64,000 bases of DNA from an uncultured Nitrososphaerota archaeon (GCA_963824385.1 CAWGPD010000004.1:480001-544000), one strand, 5' to 3'; positions 13,801 through 30,247 are shown, numbered from the stretch's first letter. Notes: a model not told the origin generated them from the sequence alone. A program made the numbers and translations.

Positions 13801-16171
13801 TCAGTTGCTACCCAGAGTACACTAGTCTTTCCTAACTGGAATTCTGTTGGAGCGTTATTTGTAATTGTAACTGGTTGGAGATCAACTACGTTTGGATTGT
13901 TCAATTGTACAGTATTGTTATTTAGTGATGTTGCTTCTACTGTTATGCTTACAGGTTGTGAAATATGTGGTGGAGTAGTATCAACTACATCAATTACTTG
14001 AGTAGCATTAGATATGTTTCCAGATAGATCAGTAGCAGTCCATAGTATGGAAGTCTTTCCTAATGGGAATGTCTTTGATGCGTTGTTGGCAATTGTAACT
14101 GGTTGAATATCAGTTGCAGTTGCATTGCCTATTGGTACTGTGTTGTCATTTAATGAAGTAGACTTCAAATGTTATGTTAGATGGTATGGCTAGTTTTGGA
14201 GGAATGGTATGAACTACATCTACAATTTGGGTGGCATTTGCCTTGTTACCTGCTTTGTCCAGTGCTGTCCATATTATAGTAGTCTTTCCTAGTCCAAAAA
14301 ATTGCGGAGCATTATTTGTAACTGATTGTATAATTCCATTATCAGTAACGGTTGCATTTCCTAGTGGTACAATGTTTTGATTAAGTGATGTAGCCTCAAA
14401 TGTAACTGTAGACGGTGGAGAAATTTTTGGTGGAGTTGTATCTATAATATTTACAACTTGTGTGGCAGTTGCGGAATTTCCAGATTGATCAGTAGCAGTC
14501 CAAGTTATCAGAGTCTGGCCTAGTGGAAATACCGATGGAGCATTATTTGCAACTGATTCAATTGTTCCAATGGCAGTAACAGTAGCATTGCCAAGATTTA
14601 CGATATTATTAGTTGGGCTAGTTGCTTCTTGTGTTATATCAGGGGGAGCATGAATTACAGGAGGAACCGTATCTTGTACTGTCACAACTTGTGTTGCAGT
14701 TGCGGAATTTCCAGATGTGTCTATTGCCTTCCAGGTTACTGTGGTCTTGCCAATTGGAAAGTATGGAGGAGCGTCATTTGTAACAGATTCTACGCCAACT
14801 GCATCATAAGTAGATGGCACCCCAAGATTCACCGAATTATTGTCAGGAGTAGTTGCTTCAACGGTTACAGGCGGAGGCGCTGTCAATACTGGCGGAGTGG
14901 TATCTTGAACTGTGATTGTCTGTACTGCTTTTGCCATATTACCGGCGTTGTCAATTGCAGTCCATGTTACCATTGTAATGCCTAGAGGGAATTTTGATGG
15001 AGCATTACTAGTAAGGGAAGATATACCAACAGTATCAGTGGCAGTAGACTTGACCAATTGATACTGGTGTTAAAACTCCAGTTGCTTCAATTGTCATATC
15101 TGAAGGAGCTGTAATAGATGGAGGAGTATGATCATTAGGATACAAATTTTTAGTTGCATTACTCTGAGTAGAATTTTGTGTGACTGTTACTTGTGGTGTT
15201 GGATTAATTGTTTGTGTAGGTGTTGGAGCTGGAGGTAAGGGTTGGACAAATTTTTCAATTCTGCTATTGGTAGAGTCTACAACAAAAATATTTCCATTAG
15301 AGTCTACCGCAGTACCTAGAGGATTATTAAATAATCCAGGATCTGTGCCTTGACTTCCCCAAGTTGTAACCGGATCTCCATTATCATCTAACTCAAAAAT
15401 TCTATTATTTCCACTGTCTGCCACATAGATATTTCCTGACTTGTCTACAGATATACCAGTGGGTTGTTGTAGAGCAGCCCCAGTTGAAGCACTAAAAGTG
15501 CTTAAAGATACACCAGTATTAGAAAATTTTTCTATTTTATTTCCTCCTGAATCAGTTACATAGACATTTCCTTGTGAATCTGCAGCAATTCCACTTGCAG
15601 AAAGAAATTGACCGTCATCAAGTCCACTTTGCCCAATATTTTGTAAAAAGTTTCCATTACTATCAAATTTTTCAACTCTGTTATTTCCTGTATCTACAAC
15701 ATACACATCACCAGTTGGATCTACTGCTATTCCTTTTGGAAGTAGAAGTGTACCATTGTTAGTTCCTTTTGTTCCCCATTGTGTTATGTATTTACCAGTA
15801 AGATCAAATTTTTGTACATTAGAATTTGCATTATCAACAACATAGATTGAATCATTGCCAATTGCAATTCCTGCAGGAGAAGTGAATTGGTCTGGACCAC
15901 TACCTTTTGATCCAAAACTAGAAAGAAAGTTTCCATTGGTATCAAATTTTTCTACCCTATCATTTCCAAGATCAGTTACATAGACATTACCTGAAGGGTC
16001 AATTGCTACATCTTGTGGAAATGCAAATTGGGTATGGTTCTGAAATCCGTATGAACCCCATTGGGTCGAAAAAGTAGGAGAGCTAGTTGCCCATGAATAA
16101 CCAACAAACATACTTGATAGTACAATTACCAAAATCCCAATTAATACTGGGTAAGTCTTCAACACATACAA
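10876..16171 (-). CDS. Giant secreted/surface protein (~1,764 aa after repair): signal/TM segment, NHL beta-propeller, ~17 HYR-like Ig repeats and a C-terminal Gly/Asn-rich RTX-like tail
   Basis: Six listed ORFs join into one frame after repairing five indels (~15048, 14162, 13249, 11879, 11606); NHL repeats (GIAVDxxGNVYVxD), FPLGxTxVxWTATD repeats and GGxGN/GNGDN nonamers. Confidence 0.88.
11215..15130 (-). repeat. Intragenic tandem array of ~228-nt (76-aa) HYR units, several near-identical at DNA level
   Basis: ~12110-12490 matches ~13250-13630 (offset 1142); ~11720-11920 matches ~14000-14200 (offset 2283); offsets are multiples of ~228. Confidence 0.9.
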
Positions 16172-16237
16172 GATTGTAAGACACTAAAAAGATCTCCTTA
16201 GTTAGCAATTGTTACAATTTTGGTCAATTCTGGTAAA

Positions 16238-17018
16238 TTAGAATGGCTTGTTGACTTCTCTTGTGAAGACATAGCTTGCAATGGCTACCATTACTACCAC
16301 AAATCCGCATATTACGGATATTTCTATAGCCGCTGATAATATTTGAGCAGTGCCAGTCATCATCTGCCTAATCAATAACACAGAATAGGTTACAGGATTG
16401 AGTCTTGCAACAAATGCAAGCCAAGACGGTAAGAGTTCCAAAGGAAAGAGAGCAGGACTGAGCATAAACAGAGGCATTCCCAGAAAGTTGATGAGGCCCC
16501 AAAAGGTTTCTTGTGATTTAGATGTGGCAGCTACAACAACAGATATTCCAGAGAAGCCAAGTGAAAATATGATTACAGTCAACAATATTGGAAACACCAT
16601 AAGCAAGTTTGACATATGAACTCCTAACGCAAGTGCAATTCCTAAAATCAAACTTGACTGTAGCGCAGATATCAAGGATATTGCAAGCATTTTACCTAAT
16701 GCAATAGACGACCTAGAGATTGGAGAAACAAGAGACTTTGTTCATGAAACCGTATCTTCGATCCCACAAAGTGTTTACTCCACCGAAAATACTTGTGAAT
16801 ATAGCAGTGAGCATTATCACACCTGGTGCCATAAATTCTATGTAAGAACCGTGAAAACCTACAGACTGAATCAAGGGTCTAGTACTTGCAAATGTGTTAC
16901 CCATAACTATAATCCATATGGCAGGTTGAATTAGTCGTATCAGTATTCCGCTTCGTGATTTCTTGTATCTTTTCATCTCCCTCCAGAAAATAGTATAAGT
17001 ATCCGATATCATCGTCAT
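16238..17018 (-). CDS. ABC-2 type exporter permease (1-nt insertion at ~16735)
   Basis: YIEFMAPG, DRRYGFM and NPVTYSV motifs; the two ORFs join on restoring AGCT. Confidence 0.9.
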
Positions 17019-18019
17019 GATACTCGGAGCCTCCTTAATCTTTCACGCATTTTTTTTCTGTCATACTTGCCTTCATCTTCTCTTAGCTCTCTACCAGTGT
17101 GTGATAAAAATACGTCATCAAGAGTTGGTTTGTTAAGAGAAATAGTTTCTATCTTAACTTTAAGATTATTCGCATGTTGAAAAATTTGAGGAGTAAGCTG
17201 ATCTCCACTAGTTGTAAAGACGGTTACTACAAGTCCATTTGTTGACACATCTTTTACTGTAGGAGTTTTTCGTATTTCTGAAACTAATTCCTCCAGTTTT
17301 GTTTCCGAATCAATTTCAAAAATAACTATTTCATTACCTAAAGAACTTTTCAATTCTTTTGGGGAACCTGTTACTTTGATTTTCCCATTATCAATTATAG
17401 AGATATTATTACACAGTTTATCAGCCTCTTCCATATAGTGAGTAGTAAGAAAAATGGACATTCCAAATTCGTCATGAATTTTTTTTATATATTCCCAGAT
17501 TTTGTACCTAGTCTGAATATCAAGCCCAAGAGTTGGCTCATCTAGGAATAAAACTTTAGGCATGTTCAGCAACCCTCCTCCTATGTCAAGTCTTTTTCTC
17601 ATGCCTCCGGAATATGTCACGGCTGCCTCATTTTGCCTATCTGCCAATTCAATTATCTCAAGTATTTCATCTATCCTCTTTGTTCTGATATCTTTTGGGA
17701 TGTGATCAAGTCTTGCTTGCAACTCGAGATTTTCTCTACCTGTAAGATATTCATCAACTGTAGAATCCTGTTGTACATATCCAATGTTTTGTCGAACATT
17801 CTTTGCTTGAGTCATAACATCAAATCCAGCAACAAATGCTTTGCCTGAGGTTGGTTTTAGCAAGGTAGTCAGAATCATAATAGTTGTACTTTTACCTGCC
17901 CCATTAGGTCCCAAGAAACCAAAGATCTCTCCATTTTCTAGCTTGATTGAAATTTCATCAACCGCCTTAAGTCCACTAGAATAAACTTTAGAAAGTTTGT
18001 CAGTCTCTACAGCGTACAA
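17015..18019 (-). CDS. ABC exporter ATP-binding subunit (DrrA-like)
   Basis: GPNGAGKS, YSGGM and LDEPT motifs. Confidence 0.95.
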   Translation of the reverse strand: MYAVETDKLSKVYSSGLKAVDEISIKLENGEIFGFLGPNGAGKSTTIMILTTLLKPTSGKAFVAGFDVMTQAKNVRQNIGYVQQDSTVDEYLTGRENLELQARLDHIPKDIRTKRIDEILEIIELADRQNEAAVTYSGGMRKRLDIGGGLLNMPKVLFLDEPTLGLDIQTRYKIWEYIKKIHDEFGMSIFLTTHYMEEADKLCNNISIIDNGKIKVTGSPKELKSSLGNEIVIFEIDSETKLEELVSEIRKTPTVKDVSTNGLVVTVFTTSGDQLTPQIFQHANNLKVKIETISLNKPTLDDVFLSHTGRELREDEGKYDRKKMRERLRRLRVS

Positions 18020-18089
18020 CGTAGAACAGAAAATTAATCTATTATAAATTGCTATTAGGAAAAATAAAGATTTCTACGTCTAAACAAAT

Positions 18090-18545
18090 ATGAGTAAATT
18101 TTTAATAATCCTAACTCGCATAATTTTTCTTGTGCTAAGACTAGATATCTTTTTGATTGGAATTTTAGCAATTACAGCAGTTGGAAGTGCACATGCATCA
18201 TCTAGCGATATAACATTGAGTCCTCCCAGCACTGTAGATGCCAGCGGCAATCAGATATCAGATATTCATGTGGGAGAGATGGTTGTTTTTTCATCGGTAA
18301 TATCAAATCATTCAGACGGGGCTAAACGATTTACATACCTAGTATCAGTTCTTAATCAAAACAATCAACTCGAAGTGCGAGACGGTATTTCAGCAGATAT
18401 AGGTCCAAATCAGCAATTCACTGTAGCTCAATCATGGATGCCAGAAGACCCTGGAACATACAATGTGCAGACAGTTCTACTTAATGGATATCTCATATCA
18501 AGCCCATTAACAGATACAATCAACACTCAGGTTATTGTAAAATAA
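18090..18545 (+). CDS. Secreted single Ig-like-domain protein
   Basis: Signal peptide; FTYLV...QSWMP..GTYNVQ; paralogue of 24308-24721; start uncertain. Confidence 0.7.
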   Translation: MSKFLIILTRIIFLVLRLDIFLIGILAITAVGSAHASSSDITLSPPSTVDASGNQISDIHVGEMVVFSSVISNHSDGAKRFTYLVSVLNQNNQLEVRDGISADIGPNQQFTVAQSWMPEDPGTYNVQTVLLNGYLISSPLTDTINTQVIVK

Positions 18546-18561
18546 AAAAGATAAAAAAGAT

Positions 18562-19008
18562 TTATGGAGTTTTGTATTCGTCTTTTGTTTGTCTGAGAAT
18601 TACCTTTTCACCAACACCCCAGATTTCTGAAGTGCGAAAGATTCTCGAGCCAATAAGACCGTCTGATACCTCGATAGATTCTAACTCGTTGGTTTCAGTA
18701 TTCATGTGAAGTCTTTTGATTTTACCGATCTTACGCCCGTCAATGTCAACCACTTGAGAGTCAATTCGTATCGGAGCAGATGATAGAAGTACTGATTCCT
18801 CAGTGAATCTATCTATATAGTCACGTGATAGAAAGTGATCTTTGTGTAATCCCTTGTGTACGGTTATTCCCACAACTTCTAGGGTATCTGAATTGATATG
18901 GACGTGCTTTACTTTACCATATTCGATTCCTTCTCTATCAACGACCTTTTTTCCTTTAAATTCATCTGCAGAGATTTGCTTTCGGTCAAGTTCGATTCTT
19001 GTAGCCAT
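18562..19008 (-). CDS. Tandem PRC-barrel domain protein
   Basis: Two repeats: GKKVVDREGIEYGKV and SQVVDIDGRKIGKI. Confidence 0.85.
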   Translation of the reverse strand: MATRIELDRKQISADEFKGKKVVDREGIEYGKVKHVHINSDTLEVVGITVHKGLHKDHFLSRDYIDRFTEESVLLSSAPIRIDSQVVDIDGRKIGKIKRLHMNTETNELESIEVSDGLIGSRIFRTSEIWGVGEKVILRQTKDEYKTP

Positions 19009-19012
19009 GTAC

Positions 19013-19029
19013 CCGACTTGTCAAGTCGG
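19013..19029. promoter_or_regulatory. Perfect inverted repeat CCGACTTG-T-CAAGTCGG, candidate operator
   Basis: Lies between the AT-rich promoter element (19030-19038) and the ATG (19008) of the PRC-barrel gene. Confidence 0.6.
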
Positions 19030-19096
19030 TTTATTGAAGGCGGTATCAGGGTTTTCAATCTAATCGGTTAAATTCTTTAAAACAAGACAAGATTTC

Positions 19097-19414
19097 ATGG
19101 AAATTCAAGAGGGAACCTTCAAGGCAACGCTAGTTACAACGGGGAGAAAGTCAGGCAAAGAGCACTCTGTTGAGATTAGGGCCGTATATTACAAGGGAAA
19201 ATTCTATTTTTCCAGAAGAAATCCAAATAGTGACTGGTTAAAAAATGCGCTTTACAATCCTAATGTCAAAATAGAATATCAAGGAAAATTTATTTTAGGA
19301 ACAGCGTCATTGGTCAATAATCAAGAATTATGTAAAAAGATATCACAGATGAAATATGCTGATAAACGATCTGAGGAAGTAAGAATAGTTTTACAAGTCA
19401 ACCCATGTGAATAA
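19097..19414 (+). CDS. Deazaflavin (F420)-dependent nitroreductase-like split-barrel protein
   Basis: LVTTGRKSG and SDWLKNALYNPNV motifs. Confidence 0.75.
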   Translation: MEIQEGTFKATLVTTGRKSGKEHSVEIRAVYYKGKFYFSRRNPNSDWLKNALYNPNVKIEYQGKFILGTASLVNNQELCKKISQMKYADKRSEEVRIVLQVNPCE

Positions 19415-20051
19415 TTGTAGTCATACCGCGTCGTTCATGTTCTTGACCATCTCTTGTTTCAGTTACAACAACCGTAAAAGAAACAACGTCTCTAGGATTA
19501 CATTTGTGAGCATCCATTTTCAAATGTAGATCTAAAAGTTCAAAGTCTTCATCAGAAATGTTTGATTCATCAATTATAACATGACTTGTAGAACTTATCA
19601 AAAATCTCTTATCCTTTTGATGCCATCCCAATTTTACTCTATACCCTTCTCTTCCAATTGCTTTTACAGTTATGTCTATTACTCCAGGTTTTGCAAGTGC
19701 ATAACCAGACATATTATTAACAAAAACTCCCACTTGAAATGGATATCCGGCAGTATTTTCTGCCATTTTTTGTATTCCATCATTCATGACAACATCAACT
19801 CCTTTTATCGTAGTAGCAATCTTTGCTATCCATTCATTTGTTCGTTCAACTATTGCATGTATTTGCGTGCGTCGTTTCTTGTCTTCGTCTTCAGGGAGTT
19901 TGTAATAATCAACCCATGCTAGATAATCCCCACATATGTCTTTGATAAATTGCATGCATGTTACCTTGTAATCTTCAACACTTGATGCTCTTTCAGAACC
20001 CTCATCATATGGTACATCGTCTTTATCCAATGGAAGCATGAGTTGTCTCAA
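19398..20051 (-). CDS. Hypothetical protein
   Basis: 217-aa ORF with typical composition; no recognised motif. Confidence 0.65.
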   Translation of the reverse strand: MRQLMLPLDKDDVPYDEGSERASSVEDYKVTCMQFIKDICGDYLAWVDYYKLPEDEDKKRRTQIHAIVERTNEWIAKIATTIKGVDVVMNDGIQKMAENTAGYPFQVGVFVNNMSGYALAKPGVIDITVKAIGREGYRVKLGWHQKDKRFLISSTSHVIIDESNISDEDFELLDLHLKMDAHKCNPRDVVSFTVVVTETRDGQEHERRGMTTIIHMG

Positions 20052-20067
20052 AATATCTTGTAATTAA

Positions 20068-20625
20068 GTGAAACCTAATGCATATATGAGAAAATTTTTT
20101 ATTATAATTATGAGTTTTTCTCAAATATCAACCAGACTTCAAAAAGAGTTAAAATCAAACAATCCACAGATTCGTTTTCTCTTAAAAAAAAGTCCTGGCC
20201 TTGCATTTACTACTATCAATGAGATTGCAATCAACATTGGAAAAACATACAATATCAAAGTCTCCCTTAATTTTCCTGAAAGGGGAAAGATTGAGGATTA
20301 TGATGCATATGGAACAGAAAATATCGGATTTGTATTTGAAAGAGATAGTAAAGCATTTCCTATCCCAAGAGAATCGATAAAATCAAAAGCATCTGAAATT
20401 CTAGGTAGTGTCAATATTCAAGATGCATACATGTATGAGGGAAAGGAAGGAGTCAGAGTGATAAATGATAATTATAGGCTAGACGTATTACCTGCTTCTT
20501 TACACTTGTGGGGCAAGATCAATGATGAAATTAGAAATTTTTGTGATTGGTTGCTTGAAAATTGTTATGGAGTTAAACCTGGTGTAGATGGCGCCTTTAA
20601 TGAAACTAATTCAAAAACATATTGA
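20068..20625 (+). CDS. Hypothetical protein
   Basis: Long ORF; likely start is the later ATG (MSFSQIS). Confidence 0.6.
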   Translation: MKPNAYMRKFFIIIMSFSQISTRLQKELKSNNPQIRFLLKKSPGLAFTTINEIAINIGKTYNIKVSLNFPERGKIEDYDAYGTENIGFVFERDSKAFPIPRESIKSKASEILGSVNIQDAYMYEGKEGVRVINDNYRLDVLPASLHLWGKINDEIRNFCDWLLENCYGVKPGVDGAFNETNSKTY

Positions 20626-21281
20626 AGATTTCCATCAGGATCATAAATTATAGCTTTTACAGGTATTGGTAAATTATCAACTATCCATATTTTGTTTATG
20701 TGTGCTCCAATTCTGTATGACAAAAGATATGCATTTGCAGAACCAAATCCAAATGACATTTTTCCAGAATCAGTTACTTTGAGTGTTTCATGATTTGCAC
20801 CAATGTAGAGGTCACCCCATTCCGCATCTTTTGCCAGATATTTTTCATCGGTTGCATAATCTCTCATTGAAAATATGGTTTGATCAAGAACATCAAAGTA
20901 GGGTTTGACATTAGAAGAGACATCCACAAAATCATAAACTAGGCCTATTGGTACAGTCTGACTTATTTTTTCACCACCATTGCTTGGATTTATCGTAACT
21001 AACAATGATTGATTTCCTTCTTGGATTGGAAGAAATTTTAGATCAGCAGTGAAATTTGTGTTGCTAAAAGAAACCGGATTAGATGATGAATTTGTGTTGT
21101 TAAAAGAAACCTGATAAATCATTTCAGGAGTATATTCTGAACCTTTGCCCATGTGCCATTGACTTGCTTGTATAGGTACCAAGAAGATAGGTTTTACATT
21201 AGAAAGAAATGGCCATGCAAGTCCGGCAGCTGCCACTATTATAATTACAGCAAAAATAGCTACAATTCTTATGTTAGGCAT
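20565..21281 (-). CDS. Membrane-anchored protein, paralogous to the N-terminal domain of 21301-22665
   Basis: N-terminal TM; NKIWIVDNLPIPVKAIIY versus NKIWIDSSLPFPVKAIVY in the neighbour. Confidence 0.75.
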   Translation of the reverse strand: MPNIRIVAIFAVIIIVAAAGLAWPFLSNVKPIFLVPIQASQWHMGKGSEYTPEMIYQVSFNNTNSSSNPVSFSNTNFTADLKFLPIQEGNQSLLVTINPSNGGEKISQTVPIGLVYDFVDVSSNVKPYFDVLDQTIFSMRDYATDEKYLAKDAEWGDLYIGANHETLKVTDSGKMSFGFGSANAYLLSYRIGAHINKIWIVDNLPIPVKAIIYDPDGNLQYVFELVSLKAPSTPGLTP

Positions 21282-21300
21282 GTTATCTCAATTAATTTTC

Positions 21301-22665
21301 TTATAGTCTAATACTAGATAGACTTGGATGCATTCTAACAAATAGAATTGTCAATCCAACTACAATTGCCATTATCATCAGAGAGCTCAATGGAAATTCT
21401 GGAATGGCGTTATTTACAGTGCCATTGGTCATGGTAGAATTATTCATAGAAGTGCCATTAGTCATAGTCATAGAAGTGCTATTGGTCATAGTAGAATTAG
21501 TCATAGAAGGTGTTGTTCCCATACTTGCAGGTGGCGAACCAAATGATGCTTGTGTATTTATATCAAATTGCACATTACCTGCAGTGCTGACATCTGGAGT
21601 AGAACCTTGAGCTCCTATTCCAAGGGCTGCTATTAAAACGTGTGACAGAGGAGTACTTCCGTTCAAGACAAATGTATTATCATCATCTCCAACTGGGGCA
21701 AATAGAGATGGTCTTCCCAGAGTTTGTGCAAGAGAAGATAGTTTCACTCCGTTATTATCCACTGTGAATATATCATATTGCACATTACTGACTTTTTGTG
21801 TTTGGTCATAGGCCTGCTCAAAAGATAATCTCATCTCTATCGGACAACCATTATGAGGATTAGATGGACTATACCTATATTCTACAACCATCGAGTTTGA
21901 ATCTGTTGTAGCAGTAGCGTGAACGGAATCTTGTAACATATTTGGTGCTTCACAACCTGAATTTACTCCAGCAGTTGTAGTAGAAGTCACTTGTAAGAAG
22001 CTAGGTTCTGTTTGACTATTTCCATTTTGTAACAAGTCCAAAGTATAATCGGGAGGAGGTGTTCCCGTGGTTACATCTACGTAAACAATAGCCTTTACAG
22101 GAAATGGAAGTGATGAATCGATCCAAATTTTATTATCAACATCTTTGTGCCAGCCAACTACCCATGTATCAAATGTTCCAGCTGGTTCTGTAATTGTGTC
22201 ATGGTTTAGAGGACCAACTGATTGTCCACCAACAGAACCTGTACGTCCCCATGCTGGAACATCAAAAGTTTTTGGTGAATCACTTGTTGCAAAAGCATCT
22301 AACCATGAGACTGTACTTCTGTAAACTGCAGTATAATCTGAAATATTAGGATCAAAAGTTTCTGGATCAGGAGTTATTTTCCCTATTGTCATGATTCCTT
22401 CTTGTACAATTGAGCCATCAACTGTTAGAAATACTAAATTCCAACCACTTCCATCGCTTGTCTGATTTTTCACCCAAAAACTCATCTGAAGTGGAGCGCA
22501 GTTATGCCAGTCTGTAAAGCAGACATTATAACTAAAATAATCACCTTGTTTGAGTCCCTTTCCAGGATACCATGAATCAGTAGATTTTGTAGCCTGTACA
22601 GACTGGAAAGCAACAGGCATGATTAATAAAAATGTAAAAATTGCAAATACTGCATACTTTTGCAT
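21301..22665 (-). CDS. Secreted protein with Met/Thr/Asn-rich linker and PEF(G)-CTERM-like sorting signal
   Basis: Signal peptide; C-terminal IPEFP + TM + basic residue; MTNST repeats. Confidence 0.8.
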   Translation of the reverse strand: MQKYAVFAIFTFLLIMPVAFQSVQATKSTDSWYPGKGLKQGDYFSYNVCFTDWHNCAPLQMSFWVKNQTSDGSGWNLVFLTVDGSIVQEGIMTIGKITPDPETFDPNISDYTAVYRSTVSWLDAFATSDSPKTFDVPAWGRTGSVGGQSVGPLNHDTITEPAGTFDTWVVGWHKDVDNKIWIDSSLPFPVKAIVYVDVTTGTPPPDYTLDLLQNGNSQTEPSFLQVTSTTTAGVNSGCEAPNMLQDSVHATATTDSNSMVVEYRYSPSNPHNGCPIEMRLSFEQAYDQTQKVSNVQYDIFTVDNNGVKLSSLAQTLGRPSLFAPVGDDDNTFVLNGSTPLSHVLIAALGIGAQGSTPDVSTAGNVQFDINTQASFGSPPASMGTTPSMTNSTMTNSTSMTMTNGTSMNNSTMTNGTVNNAIPEFPLSSLMIMAIVVGLTILFVRMHPSLSSIRL

Positions 22666-22740
22666 ATATTTGCTATAGAAAAAATGTTCTAGTTAAATCT
22701 TTCAAATAAGCAAATATAGTGGAACCATATTATTCCGAAT

Positions 22741-22911
22741 ATGTGTGAATGTGAAAAAGTCCACATGTATGAAGTTGACTTTAAGCTTGATGGAATGATT
22801 GTAGTTCCAACACATAAAAATTGCGGAGATGCCCTTAATGAGAAACAAGTAGACAAGTTTCAAAAAGAACTAGTTAAAACATGGGGCTTCAAAGACGAAA
22901 ACGAAAAGTAA
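22741..22911 (+). CDS. 56-aa putative metal-binding microprotein (CxCxxxH...HxxC), not in the ORF track
   Basis: Manual translation: MCECEKVHMYEVDFKLDGMIVVPTHKNCGDALNEKQVDKFQKELVKTWGFKDENEK*. Confidence 0.7.
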   Translation: MCECEKVHMYEVDFKLDGMIVVPTHKNCGDALNEKQVDKFQKELVKTWGFKDENEK

Positions 22912-22925
22912 AACTTGGGCATTTT

Positions 22926-22944
22926 AAAAAATAAAAGAAAAAAA
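22926..22944 (-). terminator. T-rich archaeal terminator downstream of the metallothionein-like gene
   Basis: Near-continuous T run on the minus strand starting ~15 nt after the stop. Confidence 0.45.
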
Positions 22945-22959
22945 GGTTACTAAAACCTA

Positions 22960-23100
22960 TTAGAATGAAGATACGTGATCTTTGCAAACTGATGCTTTGC
23001 AAGTACATTTAGCTTCACAAAGACAAGAGCCTTGCATTTCACAATCACATTCTGCATTATTTTCTTTGGATGATTCGCATCCACATGCTGCATCGGTCAT
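22960..23100 (-). CDS. 46-aa metallothionein-like protein, not in the ORF track
   Basis: MTDAACGCESSKENNAECDCEMQGSCLCEAKCTCKASVCKDHVSSF*; 9 Cys in four CxC motifs plus one; TTTTAAAA 23-30 nt upstream; T-tract downstream. Confidence 0.75.
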   Translation of the reverse strand: MTDAACGCESSKENNAECDCEMQGSCLCEAKCTCKASVCKDHVSSF

Positions 23101-23165
23101 ACTGTGGAGATCTCATACAGGGTTTTAAAAGTTATCGAATAATCACCATATTATGATTCGCTACC

Positions 23166-24050
23166 CTATGGCTGATTTTTTAGATCCCCTAGTATTTCGT
23201 TTGTAGACTGGAGTAAAGTTTTGGCTTGATTATCAATTACCACAGAGTCATGCTCCATATCAAGTCCTATTTTTAGCACATGAATAAATTCAGGATTTTT
23301 ATGAATCTGATTTTTAACTCTAAGGAGATTATTCCTGTTTACGTATCCTAGATAAAAGTAGCAATCTGAAAGAAGTAAATTATCTACAAGATATTCATAT
23401 TTTTTTGTTATAATATCAGAATTTCCATTATTTTCCACCATATTAGAAAATCCAACAGTCGACTTGACCATTCTTGAGAGAAGAGATGTTGATGATCTTT
23501 CAATACCAAGAATTTGATGTATTATAGAAAACGTTTGGTTTACTTTATCCTTCTTCATGTTTCTCATCACTTCAAGCATATGAGTTGGACTTGGTCTCTT
23601 CATATTAAGACAAAAAATAGCGTCTGCCAAAGAATATGATGCACATTTTATCCATGCCCCTGCAAAAGGATCACTGATTTTAATAGAATCTCTTGCTTTG
23701 TTAGCAAGAATCCCTGCATCAACAAGACAGCTCATAGCATGAGAGGTTGCAATTTGTTCTTTCTTTTCATTTATTTTTGACAATAACATTCTGAGCTTCC
23801 ATTGATCATCATTTATGATAGTTAAATCCTGGAGTTGGTGTAAGGTACTACTAGTAGTATCATTAAGTGAACAATGATGTATTTTGACAAAGTCATTTTC
23901 AATACGGTGAACTGATTCTCCAGATTTTTCATCCATCACAGTTATGTTATACTCACAACATTGGAAATGAGTTCCATTACTTCTACAACCTCCCAATCCA
24001 ACAGGAAAATCAGACATTGAAAGTAGAGATGGAATTTGTTTTACATCCAT
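23166..24050 (-). CDS. Hypothetical protein, possibly a degenerate nucleotidyltransferase fold
   Basis: VGLGGCR...CCEYNITVMD loosely resembles the Pol-beta hG[GS]...DxD motif; helical C-terminus. Confidence 0.6.
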   Translation of the reverse strand: MDVKQIPSLLSMSDFPVGLGGCRSNGTHFQCCEYNITVMDEKSGESVHRIENDFVKIHHCSLNDTTSSTLHQLQDLTIINDDQWKLRMLLSKINEKKEQIATSHAMSCLVDAGILANKARDSIKISDPFAGAWIKCASYSLADAIFCLNMKRPSPTHMLEVMRNMKKDKVNQTFSIIHQILGIERSSTSLLSRMVKSTVGFSNMVENNGNSDIITKKYEYLVDNLLLSDCYFYLGYVNRNNLLRVKNQIHKNPEFIHVLKIGLDMEHDSVVIDNQAKTLLQSTNEILGDLKNQP

Positions 24051-24159
24051 AAAGAACCAGTCTATGATTTTGCTATAAAGTATCAAAGCTGTTAAAATTT
24101 ACAAATCCATTCAAAGGCAAAACGTTCCTTTAAATTGCTATTCTTTATGGCTTAGCTAA

Positions 24160-24235
24160 GCTCCTGTGGTGTAGTCCGGCTAAGCATACTGCCCTCTCAA
24201 GGCAGTGATCCCGGGTTCAAATCCCGGCGGGAGCA
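24160..24235 (+). tRNA. tRNA-Glu(CTC)
   Basis: Acceptor GCTCCTG/CGGGAGC; anticodon arm CTGCC-CT-CTC-AA-GGCAG; T arm CCGGG-TTCAAAT-CCCGG. Confidence 0.96.
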
Positions 24236-24307
24236 TCTTTTCATATATTTTTTAAAAAATTCTACAATTTAAATTTAAAATTAGTATCTTACTATACCAA
24301 GATTTGA

Positions 24308-24721
24308 TCAAGTTACATTAATTGTAGTACTAAGTACACCAGTTAACGGAATAGCAGATGACAAGCTATCCCAGACAAATACTTCAATAGTATATTGTCC
24401 ACCGTTCTTTGGAATCCACACCTGTGATGCATTAAAGGATTGGTTTGAAAGCATTGATGCTGACATTCCTTGTAGAAAATCTGTACCACCGCTACTGTCC
24501 ATGACTTGAACCAAATAGGTGAACTTTTGATTAGATGTACCATGGTTTGTAAGTGTAGACTCGACTCCAATCTCTTGGCCAACTTGAAAACTAGAAACTG
24601 CGTGTCCAAAAGGATCTACCATACTAGGCGGGGTCAATGTTATACCCCCATCAGTTGCAAGAGCTGATTGTGTAAATCCAAATAAAATAACAGTTCCAAG
24701 TAAAAATAAACTAGTCTTCAA
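24308..24721 (-). CDS. Secreted single Ig-like-domain protein
   Basis: TTG start at 24721 with TTTTATAT upstream; signal peptide; YTIEVFVWDSL; paralogue of 18090-18545. Confidence 0.75.
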   Translation of the reverse strand: MKTSLFLLGTVILFGFTQSALATDGGITLTPPSMVDPFGHAVSSFQVGQEIGVESTLTNHGTSNQKFTYLVQVMDSSGGTDFLQGMSASMLSNQSFNASQVWIPKNGGQYTIEVFVWDSLSSAIPLTGVLSTTINVT

Positions 24722-24813
24722 TAATTTGAGGAGCCGATATCGATATAAAACACTTACGTACAAATCACAAGAAATAACAATCAACCTCATCTTAATCGCG
24801 TACAAACTTCTAG

Positions 24814-24975
24814 TCACGCAGTGATTCTCTTCACTACAATTTCATGTCCTTCATAAATGTGCGAGGCATGATTTATTTTTATTATCTCATTTATTTTTTG
24901 TTCTGAAAAATATTTTTCATTATACCGGCCTAAACTTTTTTTACAATTAAAACAGTAAATCTCTCTAAACTCCAC
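24814..24975 (-). CDS. 53-aa Zn-finger-like microprotein, not in the ORF track
   Basis: GTG start; MEFREIYCFNCKKSLGRYNEKYFSEQKINEIIKINHASHIYEGHEIVVKRITA*. Confidence 0.7.
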   Translation of the reverse strand: MEFREIYCFNCKKSLGRYNEKYFSEQKINEIIKINHASHIYEGHEIVVKRITA

Positions 24976-24999
24976 ACATAAAAAATGGTTTTATTGTAT

Positions 25000-25569
25000 T
25001 TAAGATTCTATATTTGAAGATCCAGGTTGGTCTTTATTTTGATAGAACTGAATTTTGGAGACTTTGTAATAAATTACTTCTCCTCTTCTTTCAATTACTG
25101 CAAGCACTGGTTCCTTGCCCATCGTGGTAATGTCTTCTATTTGTTTTTGAAGCAATCCAATTTTCTCTCTCTTACCTTCAGTTAATCCAAATACGACATA
25201 TTTTGCACCTTTTTCGCCAAATTGCCCCCTTTCATAAACCCGAAAATCGGACCCAAATCCAAATCCATCTTTTGCAATATATCCTCTAGTTCTAAGATCT
25301 CTATATATCAGAAATTTTGTGAAAGAATCAGGATCAAGTTTGATACATTCTGCCATCAAAGTATCAAAATCTATCTGATGGGTTCCTCTGAAGATCTTGA
25401 GTTTATCAATATAAAGTAAATATAGAGATTCAAATGGTTTAAGGAAAAATTTCTTTTTAATTATCTCTCCAAATCCTTTGAGCTCTAAAACATGCTGCAT
25501 ATCTTTGTCAGATACAAGAACATGATCTTTTACTAGAGCTCCTTCTACTCTAGACTCTAACTCGGACAT
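25000..25569 (-). CDS. tRNA splicing endonuclease subunit, probably the structural subunit
   Basis: ESLYL, YRDLRTRGY and GFGSDFRVY motifs; no His at the catalytic position. Confidence 0.85.
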   Translation of the reverse strand: MSELESRVEGALVKDHVLVSDKDMQHVLELKGFGEIIKKKFFLKPFESLYLLYIDKLKIFRGTHQIDFDTLMAECIKLDPDSFTKFLIYRDLRTRGYIAKDGFGFGSDFRVYERGQFGEKGAKYVVFGLTEGKREKIGLLQKQIEDITTMGKEPVLAVIERRGEVIYYKVSKIQFYQNKDQPGSSNIES

Positions 25570-25777
25570 TGAAATCCAATGGACTATTATCAATATAATA
25601 GATCTTGTCGTTCTAAAGAGAAATCGTTTCTAAGATAAACACGAAAGGAAGACATCTCTGGTGAGTGATACATCCAACATCAAGAATTTTTAGAGTTATT
25701 TCACTTCTAAAATACCTAGGAAGCACCGATATGATCTCACGGTTAAAATATAGGGCTTGAACAAAAAAAGTGTTATC

Positions 25778-26287
25778 ATGCACGGAGCAAATTACCGAGT
25801 TGGAAATGGCCAACCATATACAAGAAAGAAGTACATCAAGGGTAAGCCTCAGATAAAAATTGCTAAATTCTACGGAGGAAAAAAAGACGGAGATTACGAT
25901 TATTGCGTACAGCTTTGTTCACAACAAAAGATGCAGATAAGACACATGGCAATTGAATCTGCTAGATTATCTGCAAACAAGGCAATCGAAACAGTTACTG
26001 GAGAAACAGGATATTATTCTACATTAAGAGTATATCCACATATTTTGTTAAGAGAGAATAAAATGATTGCAACTGCAGGTGCAGACAGATTATCTGAAGG
26101 AATGCGAGGAGCATTTGGTAAAGCTGTGAGTTTAGCAGCACGCATAGAAATAGGACAAGTAATAATGGAGGCACATGTGAAAAAAGAACATCTTGATGCA
26201 GCAAAAAAAGCACTACATGGCGCGTCTGTAAAACTACCATGTACTCCAATGATCAAAGTAATTTCATTAAAAACAGTCTCAGCTTAA
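25778..26287 (+). CDS. rpl10e: 50S ribosomal protein uL16 (L10e)
   Basis: YPHILLRENKM and AGADRLSEGMRGAFGK motifs. Confidence 0.96.
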   Translation: MHGANYRVGNGQPYTRKKYIKGKPQIKIAKFYGGKKDGDYDYCVQLCSQQKMQIRHMAIESARLSANKAIETVTGETGYYSTLRVYPHILLRENKMIATAGADRLSEGMRGAFGKAVSLAARIEIGQVIMEAHVKKEHLDAAKKALHGASVKLPCTPMIKVISLKTVSA

Positions 26288-26554
26288 TTTTAAAGAGTTA
26301 AGAATTTCTTTTTGTTTTGTATTTAGAATATTAAGAAATTCATCAAACTCAGCACTTGTAGGATTACGTTTTAAAATTCTTCGACATTGATAATAAAATG
26401 AATTATACAATCTACCTATTACTATACCATAACCAAATGAGTCTGAGTGAGTCTTCAATTCATCTAGTGATTTTACAATTTTGAAAATTTCATCTGATTT
26501 ATCTGCAACCTCATTTATTTTTTGATTTAATTTTACTTCAAGTTGTTTGTCCAT
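26279..26554 (-). CDS. Hypothetical protein
   Basis: 91-aa ORF (GRLYNSFYYQCRRILKRNPT) with an AT-rich promoter upstream. Confidence 0.65.
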   Translation of the reverse strand: MDKQLEVKLNQKINEVADKSDEIFKIVKSLDELKTHSDSFGYGIVIGRLYNSFYYQCRRILKRNPTSAEFDEFLNILNTKQKEILNSLKLS

Positions 26555-26636
26555 GACATACCTTTACAACATCATGTTAAAAAATAGTATTCTAAACAGT
26601 ACCCTTTAATAGACTAATAATTTCTAAATCGGTTAA

Positions 26637-26711
26637 GCGGTTGTAGTATAGACTTGGTTATTATGCGGGATTGCCAATTCTGCGACCCGGGTCCAAATCC
26701 CGGCAACCGCA
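26637..26711 (+). tRNA. tRNA-Gly(GCC)
   Basis: Acceptor GCGGTTG/CAACCGC; anticodon loop TT-GCC-AA; T stem CCGGG/CCCGG (loop reads TCCAAAT). Confidence 0.93.
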
Positions 26712-26712
26712 T

Positions 26713-27135
26713 TTACTTATGCAAGCCTTTTCTAATTATGTCCAATGCATTTTGAGCTCTTTCAGGTTTTGGTAGCTGTATCATGAATACATTAGATTCA
26801 CCATATTGTGAATTAGGAGAAGAAAGAGCAAGTAGTGAAGTTTCTGCCAGTGCTTCAAAGAATTCTACATTTTCATTTGCGTATATTAAAAATTTTTCTT
26901 CAATATTTCCTTGTGAAAACTGTAATGTAACTTTAACAAAAACATGACCTAGTCCATCCTGGAGTATGTTTAGATTAGTCTCAATAGAAACTGGTTTTCC
27001 AGCTATAGTCTTCATTATATTATCAAATTTTCTTTCGTCCAGAATAATACAAGGGACTTGCTTCCCTTCAAAATCAGAGAGAGTAACATCTTTGTGCCTT
27101 TCTGAGAGAAATTTCTCTAGTTCTTCGTTAGCCAT
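26713..27135 (-). CDS. Hypothetical protein
   Basis: 140-aa ORF with TTTAAAAA upstream. Confidence 0.65.
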   Translation of the reverse strand: MANEELEKFLSERHKDVTLSDFEGKQVPCIILDERKFDNIMKTIAGKPVSIETNLNILQDGLGHVFVKVTLQFSQGNIEEKFLIYANENVEFFEALAETSLLALSSPNSQYGESNVFMIQLPKPERAQNALDIIRKGLHK

Positions 27136-27183
27136 AAAAGAAATGTATAATGACTTTTTAAAAAGATACTCTGTAAATTGAGA

Positions 27184-28785
27184 TCAAATGATGCTTAGAG
27201 TTTTTGCCAAAAACTCTATTCGTTCATTGTCTTCTTCAGAGATTTTCTTGCCACCATATTTGTTATTGAAATATATCAGATCTACCATCTTTGACTTGTC
27301 AATATTTACAACTGTGGCATTATACGGAGTTTGAATCTTTTTGTTTGTAAGTATAATCAGCTTGTCAACTATTGCCGATTTTGATATATCAGATATTTGA
27401 TCCAGATCAGGAATACCTAATTCATTGGCAATTATGGCCAATCCCACCTTTGAACCAAAATTATCCTGATACACAGCATCAAGAAGTAAATTTTGCTTTT
27501 CTAGTTTTTGTATTGTACCCATTTCCTGCGCAAAGATGGTCAGACTTTTGACTGCTTTTTTAATTTCCTTTTCACTATCGATGTTATTTCTTCGTATTGT
27601 TAAGAAATCAGATATTGGAATATTCATAATACTTCCTCGTACTCTAAGTCCTGGATATGATTGTCGTATTGCTTCATCAATTACATTTTCGTCAATTTTT
27701 TTAGAATTTGATTGCATTGCTTTTTCCATTGCTTGATACAATATATTAATAACAGAACGCACATTTCTAAACTCGCTAAATTCATCATAAAGTACTTGAA
27801 TTTTGTCTTCTAATTCTTGTTGTTCCTCTATTCCAAATTTACCATTTTTATCACAATGTTTTATGTATTCTGTCACAATTTCAGCAAGTTCATCTTTAGA
27901 GTTTGATCCTGCTAGATCTATTTTGTAATTTGCCTTTTCAAGCCTATCAAATACAGACGGATTAGTATTTTGTATCTCCAAATAACCTGATGGAGTAGAT
28001 ATTAGCAATAATATGGATGCAGGAAGATGTGCGTTTATCACACCCTTAATGAATTCAGTTGAATCTTTATTTCCATCAAGCTCGTCTATTTCAAAGACAA
28101 GAATTTTTCCTAAAAATCTATGAGTCAGACGAGATATTGAGGATAGCATTCCAATTAGCGTTTCCAAGTTTTTAACTTCATCAAAAGAATTCGAGATTAC
28201 ATTTCTAATTAAAATGGATTCGTGATATTCAAATTTGTGAACTAGATACTTGGTCAGATTTTCTATAGATATAGAGTGTTTTTCAGTTATGATATCCTCA
28301 GTTTTTTCTTTTATGGTCATCCCAGTGAGCTTATTTACAAAAGTATAATCAAGTGCCTTTTTGGCTAAATTGTCTCCTTGTTCAGCATTTTCTCGTATAT
28401 AATTTAAGAATTTTATTCTTAATTGTACAAAGAATTCATTATCAAATCCCTTGAGTATCGCATCATAAATTCCAGAGGTACTCTTTGGTGAAATCGTTGA
28501 CAAATCAACATACGAGCATTCAGTGTTGTATCGTCCTTTGAGACTCTTTACATGTAAAGCCAAATGAGTTTTTCCAGAACCTACATCTTGTACAACAGTA
28601 ATTACTCTAAAATCTCCATTTTCAGCAGTTCTACCTTCTACTTTTCTATTTAGTTCCTTTATACATTCAAGCACAGCAACTTTTGCTTCTTTATGTCTTC
28701 TACCTCCAAGTATTTTTGCGTCTTTTTCTGTTGGGGTTGGACTACTGGGATATGGATTTTGTTGTAGATGATAAGGATACATCAA
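27184..28785 (-). CDS. P-loop (AAA+-like) ATPase with an extra C-terminal alpha/beta domain
   Basis: N-terminal NPY; Walker A QDVGSGKT; Walker B LVFEIDE; putative Arg finger FDRL and sensor NVRSV. Confidence 0.8.
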   Translation of the reverse strand: MMYPYHLQQNPYPSSPTPTEKDAKILGGRRHKEAKVAVLECIKELNRKVEGRTAENGDFRVITVVQDVGSGKTHLALHVKSLKGRYNTECSYVDLSTISPKSTSGIYDAILKGFDNEFFVQLRIKFLNYIRENAEQGDNLAKKALDYTFVNKLTGMTIKEKTEDIITEKHSISIENLTKYLVHKFEYHESILIRNVISNSFDEVKNLETLIGMLSSISRLTHRFLGKILVFEIDELDGNKDSTEFIKGVINAHLPASILLLISTPSGYLEIQNTNPSVFDRLEKANYKIDLAGSNSKDELAEIVTEYIKHCDKNGKFGIEEQQELEDKIQVLYDEFSEFRNVRSVINILYQAMEKAMQSNSKKIDENVIDEAIRQSYPGLRVRGSIMNIPISDFLTIRRNNIDSEKEIKKAVKSLTIFAQEMGTIQKLEKQNLLLDAVYQDNFGSKVGLAIIANELGIPDLDQISDISKSAIVDKLIILTNKKIQTPYNATVVNIDKSKMVDLIYFNNKYGGKKISEEDNERIEFLAKTLSII

Positions 28786-29354
28786 ATATTCCTCACGTAA
28801 CCATGAACAAGTCCACGCATTACAATTCCCTCATGACCACCAGAAGAAATTTCATACCTGTCTCTATGATTTTCAATCAAACTTGATGCCATTTGATAGA
28901 ATTTATCCTTGGAAAGATTTTGAGTTTCACAGACTTTCTCTCTGATTTTTGTAAATGGAACCCAGCCTATTGAAGTCGAAGATTCATTTAATGAACTATT
29001 AAACACACCCTCGAAATCTTCGTTTTTAGATACACCTTCTTGCATTGAATATTTTTCCAATTCTTCTTCTAGAGTTTCTGCATGTGCTTTTACTTTTGCA
29101 AGAGACTGACTTACATTCACAAACATGTTAAGCATTAATTTGAATTTTGGATCATTTTGTGTTATATGTTGAATGTAGTTCTCTTTGGTCCAGATAAAAT
29201 ACGCTACACCTTTTTTTTCAATAAAGATTTGCTCTTTTGCCTTTAATTCTTCAAGTATACTCTCACAGTCCTTTCCAAATGTCTTTTTCAGCTCAGTTTT
29301 TTTTATTCCAGTAATCCCTGAAGATTCAATTGTTCCTAGTATCGCCTCTATCAT
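28782..29354 (-). CDS. Putative DNA-binding protein (wHTH - coiled coil - wHTH), translationally coupled to the ATPase
   Basis: 4-nt stop/start overlap; helix-helix-wing patterns at both ends (inference). Confidence 0.65.
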   Translation of the reverse strand: MIEAILGTIESSGITGIKKTELKKTFGKDCESILEELKAKEQIFIEKKGVAYFIWTKENYIQHITQNDPKFKLMLNMFVNVSQSLAKVKAHAETLEEELEKYSMQEGVSKNEDFEGVFNSSLNESSTSIGWVPFTKIREKVCETQNLSKDKFYQMASSLIENHRDRYEISSGGHEGIVMRGLVHGYVRNI

Positions 29355-29399
29355 AGATAAGACTCCATGAGATTTTATTTAATAGCCAATGTGATAGAG

Positions 29400-29427
29400 G
29401 GTAACAATTTGGTGAAGATTTGTTACC
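29400..29427. promoter_or_regulatory. Inverted repeat GGTAACAA-N12-TTGTTACC
   Basis: Perfect 8-bp arms just upstream of the promoter of the wHTH-ATPase operon. Confidence 0.5.
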
Positions 29428-29515
29428 TCATACATCAAGACATGGAACATATGAAAGAACCATTTTCAAAGCAAAGATCGGTCACAATATAAGGCATAAT
29501 GCGATAGAACACATT

Positions 29516-29574
29516 GCAGAATGATGATTAGGTATGCTGATTTATGATGAATTATACCTGGGGTATCTGACTGC
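29516..29574 (+). ncRNA. Box C/D sRNA
   Basis: GCAG/CTGC terminal stem; box C ATGATGA 29521-27; D' CTGA 29537-40; C' ATGATGA 29544-50; D CTGA 29567-70; AATATAA ~25 nt upstream. Confidence 0.88.
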
Positions 29575-29619
29575 TTTAGAAATATGAGACATGAAACCGA
29601 CAAAGATTAAATCTAAAAG

Positions 29620-30015
29620 ATGTTAACTAATGACATATTGAATTCATCAAGTGACCCATGGAAAGATAAACTAACTTCTGAGCAATATGACATTTGTAGA
29701 AGGAAAGGAACAGAGCCTCCCTTCACAGGGATATATTATGATTGTAAGGAAAAAGGCATGTACAAGTGCATATGCTGTGGAACTGAACTGTTTAACTCTG
29801 AGACAAAATTTGATTCAGGAACAGGATGGCCAAGCTTTTGGGAGTCAGTTTCGGACAATGTAAAGATGGAGAAAGATACTAGCTATGGGGTGTTAAGAGT
29901 AGAAGTCTTGTGCAAAAAGTGTGGTGCACATCTTGGGCATGTCTTTGAAGATGGACCAAATCCCACGGGTTTACGATATTGCATAAATTCTGCATCCCTA
30001 AAACTCGAAAAATAA
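29620..30015 (+). CDS. msrB: Methionine-R-sulfoxide reductase
   Basis: [23 protein letters not shown] and RYCINS motifs. Confidence 0.97.
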
Positions 30016-30071
30016 AGTAGGTAATAGCAAAGTTACCCTGTTATTAATAGTACCGTATGGTACCGTAATAC

Positions 30072-30179
30072 ATGTTAAATTGTGAGTTTTGTCCAAAGCA
30101 GTTCTTTGAAACTGCAAATGGTTTAGTAGCAAAGACTTTTCATGAGAGTCTTCATGATCCAGATTTAGTAAACAACTAA
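30072..30179 (+). CDS. 35-aa C2H2-type zinc-finger microprotein, not in the ORF track
   Basis: MLNCEFCPKQFFETANGLVAKTFHESLHDPDLVNN*; TTATTAATA 23-31 nt upstream. Confidence 0.68.
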   Translation: MLNCEFCPKQFFETANGLVAKTFHESLHDPDLVNN

Positions 30180-30247
30180 ACCTGGAAACCTTTTTTGTAC
30201 TATACAAAATCAAACCCTAACTTTTTTATCGGTTGTTATTATTCTAA

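Follow-up and report, generated by a model that had tools for sequence, protein, structure and literature searches.

The locus studied here raises the question of whether an ammonia-oxidizing archaeon of the genus Nitrosotalea makes a metallothionein. A stretch of DNA of 64,000 nucleotides from an uncultured Nitrososphaerota archaeon (hereafter the window) is the subject, and a sequence-only reading of it had proposed that a very short, cysteine-rich open reading frame (ORF) on the minus strand is an unannotated metallothionein-like gene. We asked whether this ORF is a gene at all, in which organisms it occurs and in what forms, and what its product may do.

The nine-cysteine gene and its distribution

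The ORF in question is the following.

22960..23100, minus strand: nine-cysteine mini-protein gene of 46 codons, stop TAA included, supported by intact orthologues, dN/dS and the codon-position pattern

The translation of this interval is MTDAACGCESSKENNAECDCEMQGSCLCEAKCTCKASVCKDHVSSF, a peptide of 46 amino acid residues with nine cysteines at positions 6, 8, 18, 20, 26, 28, 32, 34, and 39, that is, four CxC motifs and one further cysteine. Cysteine makes up 19.6% of the residues, there are eight acidic residues against four basic ones, the sole histidine is at position 42, and the sole aromatic residue is the terminal F46. The length, the nine cysteines, the four CxC motifs, the single histidine, and the single terminal aromatic residue are as the sequence-only reading had given them.

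When 60 relatives were searched in tblastn fashion, 32 of 36 Nitrosotalea genomes gave a full-length, stop-free match at 63 to 98% identity; the nearest relatives belong to Candidatus Nitrosotalea (N. bavarica SBT1, 98% identity, and N. devanaterra, 80%). An intact ORF of 46 to 48 residues was present at the expected site in 29 of the 30 loci retrieved. At the exceptional locus, L029 (the same DNA as L106), a one-base insertion shifts the frame after residue 30 of the nine-cysteine gene, which may be an assembly error or the mark of a pseudogene. For 61 distinct coding sequences, the median pairwise dN/dS was 0.21 (1744 pairs with dS >0.05; 64 pairs saturated), and the variable sites at codon positions 1, 2, and 3 numbered 22, 23, and 43 of 46, respectively. 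Eight of the nine cysteine codons switch between TGT and TGC, with the residue remaining cysteine. These comparisons show that the 46-codon ORF is a real protein-coding gene under purifying selection.

A six-frame scan of the organism's own genome returned 24 ATG-initiated ORFs of 30 to 90 residues with at least seven cysteines and at least 15% cysteine, against 1, 3, and 1 in three block-shuffled genomes, and most of these 24 look like wrong-frame products. The ORF described here stands beyond chance because its open frame and the purifying selection on it persist across hundreds of genomes. The idea of a chance ORF or a non-coding element could draw on the small size and on the few gene calls in one database search, which gave two unnamed clusters; set against the orthologue conservation, the codon-position pattern, the dN/dS, and the absence of any Rfam family over 22000–24000 at E up to 1, its probability is vanishingly small.

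The cysteines of the encoded unit (hereafter the module) are spaced as CxC-x9-CxC-x5-CxC-x3-CxC-x4-C. This spacing is identical in 40 of 43 modules, the other three having one extra residue. All nine cysteines are invariant in an alignment of the 43 modules from many genera (A2), although ORFs were chosen by cysteine-pattern or N-terminal-motif filters, so that cysteine invariance in those sets is partly by construction; the support that is independent of these filters comes from the full-length, stop-free matches of the similarity searches. Outside the cysteines, all 43 modules share G7, D19, and Q23, and conservation reaches 90% or more at A4, A5, G24, and K40. Aromatic residues number 0, 1, and 2 in 9, 19, and 15 of the modules, respectively, a tyrosine within CYC being common among relatives. 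Histidine is absent from 18 of the 43. His42 is not a conserved ligand because Gln or another residue replaces it in many orthologues.

With a profile built from 24 orthologues and a cutoff of E 0.001, the module was detected in 282 of the 301 Nitrosopumilaceae genomes, in 189 of the 194 high-quality ones, and in all 27 genera. In a draw of genomes from the whole order that were at least 85% complete, it was present in 49 of 49 Nitrosopumilaceae and in none of 151 genomes from 15 other families. The gene is single-copy and core. The homologue search, the cysteine spacing, and the dN/dS, which the sequence-only reading had named as a check, thus came out positive (32 of 36 genomes of the same genus, 282 of 301 of the family, median 0.21), and composition and conservation together bear out its description of a genuine coding gene of metallothionein-like make-up in an ammonia-oxidizing archaeon, here Nitrosotalea.

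A profile search of all 1.84 billion representative proteins gave 29 matches at E up to 0.001. The module is present in all 19 that were inspected, which comprise the free form, sequences whose start was wrongly called, and complete or partial fusions, and none of these 19 looks like a bacterial or eukaryotic metallothionein. Exact look-ups found relatives recorded at NCBI, JGI, and ENA, for example from Nitrosopumilus sp. K4, always as "hypothetical protein." The gene had been called unannotated, which holds in that the family is unnamed but not in that relatives are on record in these databases. A literature search, judged on titles and the openings of abstracts, found no paper linking metallothionein to ammonia-oxidizing archaea, and the phrase "archaeal metallothionein" was absent from the literature searched. 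As far as these searches go, the nine-cysteine family is unnamed and unstudied.

Promoter, transcript ends, and neighboring genes

The elements around the gene, and the gene that converges on it, are as follows.

23131..23137, minus strand: conserved CGATAAC / TAATAAC just upstream of the TATA box, at the BRE position (seen by eye, uncounted)
23123..23130, minus strand: TATA box TTTTAAAA, whose TTTAAAA core ends 22 nt before the ATG
23107..23114, minus strand: palindromic core GAGATCTC in the TATA-to-ATG interval, with GATC starting 12 nt before the ATG
22926..22944, minus strand: T-runs of 7, 4, and 6 T, 16 to 34 nt past the stop, with the CTTTTTTTCTTTTATTTTTT block kept in relatives
22741..22911, plus strand: convergent gene for a 56-residue protein (MCECxKVH...PTHKNCG...WG), a conserved, single-copy neighbor

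Archaeal TATA boxes are centered about 26 nt before the transcription start. Among 73 distinct promoters of the free gene, the distance from the end of TTTAAAA to the ATG is 22 nt in 59 and 21 to 23 nt in 68, and the spacing is common to Nitrosotalea, Nitrosopumilus-type, and other genera. Taken with the archaeal rule, this geometry predicts a leaderless mRNA that would start at or next to the start codon, and the claim of a TATA box at leaderless spacing is thereby confirmed.

An imperfect palindrome had likewise been placed over the expected start site. It is present, as CTGT-AT-GAGATCTC-C-ACAG at 23102–23120, but its long form is not conserved. What recurs is the GnGATCnC core, located where transcription is predicted to begin and restricted to Nitrosotalea-like genera. 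Of 73 distinct promoters, 45 have the GATC 12 nt before the ATG; those of the Nitrosopumilus type lack the element. In 41 of 48 cases the flanking G..C pair is preserved, the bases next to GATC are complementary in only 25 of 48, and those farther out are so in 15 and 8 of 48; the palindrome is therefore without convincing covariation, and a compensatory change from GAGATCTC to GGGATCCC, considered as a candidate, was rejected by the same counts. The GnGATCnC core could be an operator or a part of the initiator region, and the repressor control that the sequence-only reading had proposed is a hypothesis only. Across the 1.68-Mb genome, the nine-cysteine promoter is the sole place where a TATA box and a GRGATCYC core occur together, so no regulon was found.

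At the other end, the TAA stop of the window's gene is followed by an in-frame TAG. The tandem stops that had been described are thus real in the window but do not extend to relatives, in which TGA or TAG is followed by a sense codon. The T-tract described after the stop is present and its T-runs are conserved among relatives; those at 22926–22944 are likely archaeal oligo-T termination signals, and no hairpin terminator of the bacterial type was found after the gene.

Metatranscriptome contigs from four RNA libraries of four studies mapped solely within 22668–23144 when 22400–23700 (1301 bases) was examined, and the uncovered parts of that interval are no sign of low expression of the flanking genes. 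An RNA insert of 329 bases at 99% identity or more covers 22759–23087, others cover 22921–23118 and 22998–23144, and a relative's RNA contig with a depth of 210 lies over the gene for the 56-residue protein (22668–22912). The contigs fit transcription of both small genes, while being silent on starts, strands, and levels and open to DNA carry-over.

The 20 ORFs at 15038–31655, about 8 kb on each side, include an ABC-2 exporter, a tRNA-intron endonuclease, ribosomal protein L10e, and MsrB; no gene for a metal transporter, metal sensor, chaperone, or ArsR/SmtB-type regulator is among them. In the same region, an ABC-2 permease beside an ABC ATPase is split into two ORFs (16238–17018, minus strand), of which the 101-residue ORF matches positions 3 to 83 of PF01061 and the 150-residue ORF positions 101 to 209; the split may be either a frameshift, a pseudogene, or genuine. 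Two secreted or membrane-anchored proteins without a Pfam family are encoded at 21301–22665 and 20565–21281, both on the minus strand. The 454-residue protein of this pair has a linker rich in Asn, Ser, Thr, and Met and a C-terminal PEF followed by a hydrophobic anchor, which we take to resemble archaeal PEF-CTERM sorting signals.

Of 81 distinct loci with the stand-alone gene, 76 have the convergent gene no more than 330 nt away, the stop-to-stop distance being 18 to 146 nt (median 42). In the 56-residue protein, C2, C4, H8, and C28 are invariant and H25 is nearly so (alignment A4). It had no match to known families, its profile gave only a chance-level row against PDB sequences (E 0.94), and NCBIfam held no family for it, for the module, or for the upstream 306-residue ORF. 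By family of the order, its gene was found in 49 of 49, 7 of 7, 10 of 10, 42 of 49, and 0 of 47 genomes. The two genes are thus neighbors that are not co-distributed. Given this spread across families, the microprotein itself has the look of a small zinc-binding protein that is core to ammonia oxidizers, its conserved Cys and His residues being likely metal ligands.

The size and cysteine content of the module are like those of SCIFF/ranthipeptide and chalkophore-type precursors, which would make the gene a source of a ribosomally synthesized and modified peptide (RiPP) with a cysteine-rich core. However, the roughly 8 kb to each side contain no gene for a radical-SAM enzyme or other maturase, for a protease, or for an exporter. 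In addition, conservation runs evenly along the whole peptide without a split between leader and core, and the module also ends a 454-residue membrane protein, as described below. We regard a RiPP precursor as highly improbable.

Fused forms of the module

In many genera, a second match to the module was found at the extreme end of a frame of 455 to 527 codons. In Nitrosopumilus and Nitrosarchaeum, the module is also the C-terminus of a membrane protein of about 454 residues. In the 454-residue protein of Nitrosarchaeum, a signal peptide is followed by an ectodomain of about 300 residues, a single membrane helix with basic residues after it, and a linker of about 75 residues; the module makes up the final 45 residues (L093:1774–3138, plus strand). 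Because basic residues come after the membrane helix, the fused module is placed in the cytoplasm, a predicted topology that was assigned by eye. A second type of fusion is a 129-residue protein (P0184) with hydrophobic N-terminal segments that ends in the nine-cysteine module.

When 8000 candidates were scored against the protein of about 454 residues, 2916 proved to be relatives at E up to 1e-5, and every named one among the 120 matches listed is called "hypothetical"; neither Pfam nor NCBIfam has a family for it. The predicted ectodomain reached a pLDDT of about 90 over residues 40–200, with the linker and tail at low confidence. Foldseek returned no match for the fused protein at E up to 0.001, all TM-scores being below 0.2, and the best VIA-align hit (Z 4.8) gave no convincing fold match.

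Members of this membrane protein family are about 400 to 454 residues long and are encoded beside a CofD-like gene. The window's own genome has a tail-less orthologue adjoining the same CofD-like gene (G000:C4:335645–336724; L111:1459–2658). In Nitrosotalea, the free form was the only one found.

Relation to known cysteine-rich proteins and proposed function

Metallothioneins are defined operationally as small, cysteine-rich proteins with CxC motifs that form metal-thiolate clusters (PMC7826182, PMC7558416). By sequence, the module has all the marks of such a protein: 46 residues, 19.6% cysteine, four CxC motifs and a further cysteine, and no more than two aromatic residues. Nevertheless, the window's peptide had no Pfam match even at an E-value cutoff of 1, and the thresholds of the metallothionein families (PF00131, PF02069, PF01439, PF02067, PF02068, and others) were not reached; one of the 43 modules matched PF00131 at E 0.058, below threshold, in a scan at E up to 10. 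In a protein-language-model comparison, which provides leads only, the named neighbors were all metallothionein Pfam families (0.86 to 0.75), behind unnamed clusters. The module profile found only a chance-level row among PDB sequences (E 0.6). An AlphaFold model of the 46 residues has three short helices at a mean pLDDT of 70.2; being short, metal-free, and of that confidence, it says little by having no Foldseek match in the PDB at E up to 10, and the same metal-free model had no VIA-align match at Z of at least 2 against 48,161 chains.

The vertebrate β domain consists, as the module does, of four CxC motifs followed by one cysteine. The 9-cysteine (β) domain of PF00131 in vertebrates and mollusks resembles the module in being short, dominated by CxC, and nearly free of aromatic residues, but the two share no detectable homology. 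Unlike that domain, the module has longer spacers (9, 5, 3, 4) and strongly conserved non-cysteine residues, is archaeal, and is a single domain that doubles as a membrane-protein tail. The nine cysteines of the vertebrate β domain are described in PMC7826182, according to which every 9-cysteine domain holds three divalent ions.

Among prokaryotic proteins, the module shares with MymT of Mycobacterium a size of about 5 kDa, its cysteine richness, and the fate of a small ORF missed by annotation. MymT is described as a small cysteine-rich Cu(I) protein that at first went unannotated, with a predicted capacity of as many as six Cu(I) (PMC7558416). The two have no sequence match, and MymT is copper-induced and needed for resistance, whereas the module gene is core. 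SmtA uses histidine ligands. SmtA/BmtA proteins (PF02069) are, like the module, prokaryotic, cytoplasmic, and of similar size, and they carry a multi-metal thiolate cluster of the kind that is predicted for the module; unlike them, the module has no Pfam match and lacks histidine in 18 of 43 cases. The fold of SmtA is that of a zinc finger (PMC7558416). In the text available from that source, bacterial metallothioneins are described as rare and archaeal ones go unmentioned. These comparisons suggest that the module is metallothionein-like by make-up and yet a separate, new family that doubles as a domain.

It is quite probable that the module binds metal through a thiolate cluster at all. Nine reduced cytoplasmic thiols so spaced would wrap an M3S9-type cluster, with three Zn(II)-type ions, or about four to six Cu(I); the M3S9-type cluster is inferred from the nine cysteines, as in 9-cysteine metallothionein domains. 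Free in the cytoplasm, the small protein would then buffer metal or hand it over, and in the fused form the same metal site would be tethered to the inner face of the membrane. The C-terminus of yeast Ctr1 is a cytoplasmic cysteine-rich tail that forms a Cu(I)-thiolate cluster for hand-over. The fused module is a possible analogue of such a tail, although its archaeal partner has one helix and a large ectodomain and is no known transporter. We consider the chances about even that the module is a metal-thiolate cluster mini-protein working in the manner of metallothioneins and founding a new family.

Several observations weigh on the question of whether metal is the function of the module or its scaffold. 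Its non-cysteine residues vary less than those of typical metallothioneins do, which would agree with a particular fold or partner; this conservation, together with the fusion to a membrane protein, exceeds, and would partly contradict, a simple metal sponge. A core gene with a promoter constant across genera has no obvious accessory, metal-inducible character. The copper enzymes of ammonia oxidizers sit outside the cytoplasm, so a cytoplasmic copper store answers no obvious need.

The main alternative is a structural docking module of the Zn3Cys9 type, in which metal would be the scaffold and the conserved surface (AACGC, ECDCxMQG, CK) the binding site for a specific protein or nucleic acid. 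On its own the module would act as a soluble adaptor, and its fused counterpart would bring that partner to a membrane protein. The invariance of G7, D19, and Q23 and the near-invariance of A4, A5, G24, and K40 in the 43 modules argue for it, as do the fixed cysteine spacing, the core status of the gene with its constant promoter, and the use of the module as a C-terminal add-on of two different membrane proteins. A precedent is found in domains of the CXC and pre-SET type, in which nine-cysteine Zn3 clusters are structural or DNA-binding; Zn3Cys9 clusters, those of metallothioneins included, have six cysteines that are terminal and three that bridge (PMC3447885). These domains (MSL2, tesmin/TSO1, SUV39) have, like the module, nine invariant cysteines in about 50 residues together with conserved non-cysteine residues, and they hold a structural three-zinc cluster of the kind that the module may form, but they are eukaryotic and nuclear, and the module is archaeal. 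Their consensus, CX[C/H]X2-13CX4-7CXCX5-60CX2-4CX1-2CX2-15CXN (PMC3447885), was fitted by none of the 43 modules, which lack the C-x-N signature at its end, and the short, metal-free model gave no fold match. We regard a docking module as possible but unlikely. A role that is metallothionein-like rather than structural is about evenly poised.

A further reading makes the product a thiol protein active in redox chemistry, which would carry an iron-sulfur cluster or else scavenge peroxide or nitric oxide, sacrificially or with regeneration, in a lineage without glutathione-type thiols. Nine reduced cytoplasmic thiols in 46 residues would suit such a protein. The gain of γ-glutamylcysteine ligase only by the soil lineage (PMC7554672) and the listing of oxidative-stress defense among metallothionein roles (PMC7558416) point the same way. 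The MsrB gene 6.5 kb away (29620–30015) is weak context in its favor. On the other hand, the sequence has neither a CxxC motif nor the CxxCxxCxxxC motif of ferredoxins but CxC pairs only, and no gene for Fe-S assembly or thioredoxin is next to the module gene. Since CxC pairs are typical of metal-thiolate clusters and less so of Fe-S or dithiol-disulfide chemistry, their presence counts against a redox protein, which we hold to be improbable.

The copper storage protein Csp (PF03860) provides the comparison of distributions. Csp is, like the module, cysteine-rich and cytoplasmic, and it is a Cu(I) store, but it is a four-helix bundle of about 120 residues with DUF326 repeats and no similarity to the module. 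The module is not Csp itself, a candidate rejected because there is no Pfam match and PF03860 was not found in the organism's own genome. The soil ammonia oxidizer Nitrososphaera viennensis has a Csp homologue that is up-regulated under copper limitation and has been proposed as its cytoplasmic Cu(I) store (PMC7785015), and Csp was acquired together with gshA, for γ-glutamylcysteine ligase, only by the soil lineage (PMC7554672). In our draw, PF03860 occurred in 15 of 49 genomes of one family of the order (f15), in 1 of 7 of another, and in 0 of 49 Nitrosopumilaceae genomes. The taxonomic distributions of Csp and the module are complementary, the module's (49 of 49 against 0 of 151) mirroring that of Csp, which is suggestive of a substitute for Csp.

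Another cysteine-rich ORF of the same genome, at G000:C1:245715–245819 on the plus strand (L138:1501–1605), has 35 residues with 10 cysteines and five CxC motifs. It was rejected as a paralogue, being a sporadic accessory gene that was intact in 3 of 40 other Nitrosotalea genomes and turned up in none of 200 order-wide. It is divergent from a gene for a 153-residue membrane protein with Met/His-rich repeats, which resemble copper-binding "Mets" motifs. The pair may form an accessory copper island.

Nitrosopumilaceae ammonia oxidizers drive nitrification in the oceans and in acid soils and depend on copper enzymes. For the question of how copper and zinc are handled inside these archaea, a core, family-wide module offers a concrete target. 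The 46-residue peptide can be synthesized cheaply, and the module may also serve as a marker for metal physiology in metatranscriptomes. In its fullest form, the metallothionein reading would describe the first archaeal metallothionein family, an invention of the Nitrosopumilaceae ancestor that handles cytoplasmic Cu(I)/Zn(II) in place of Csp and glutathione-type thiols, with the fused form wiring a membrane protein to the metal pool; we put this forward tentatively, with the balance tilted slightly against it. If the module is instead a docking unit, it would represent a new lineage-specific small domain attached to a conserved membrane protein. If the metallothionein reading is true, archaea that are among the most abundant on the planet would keep the gene for such a protein in their core genome.
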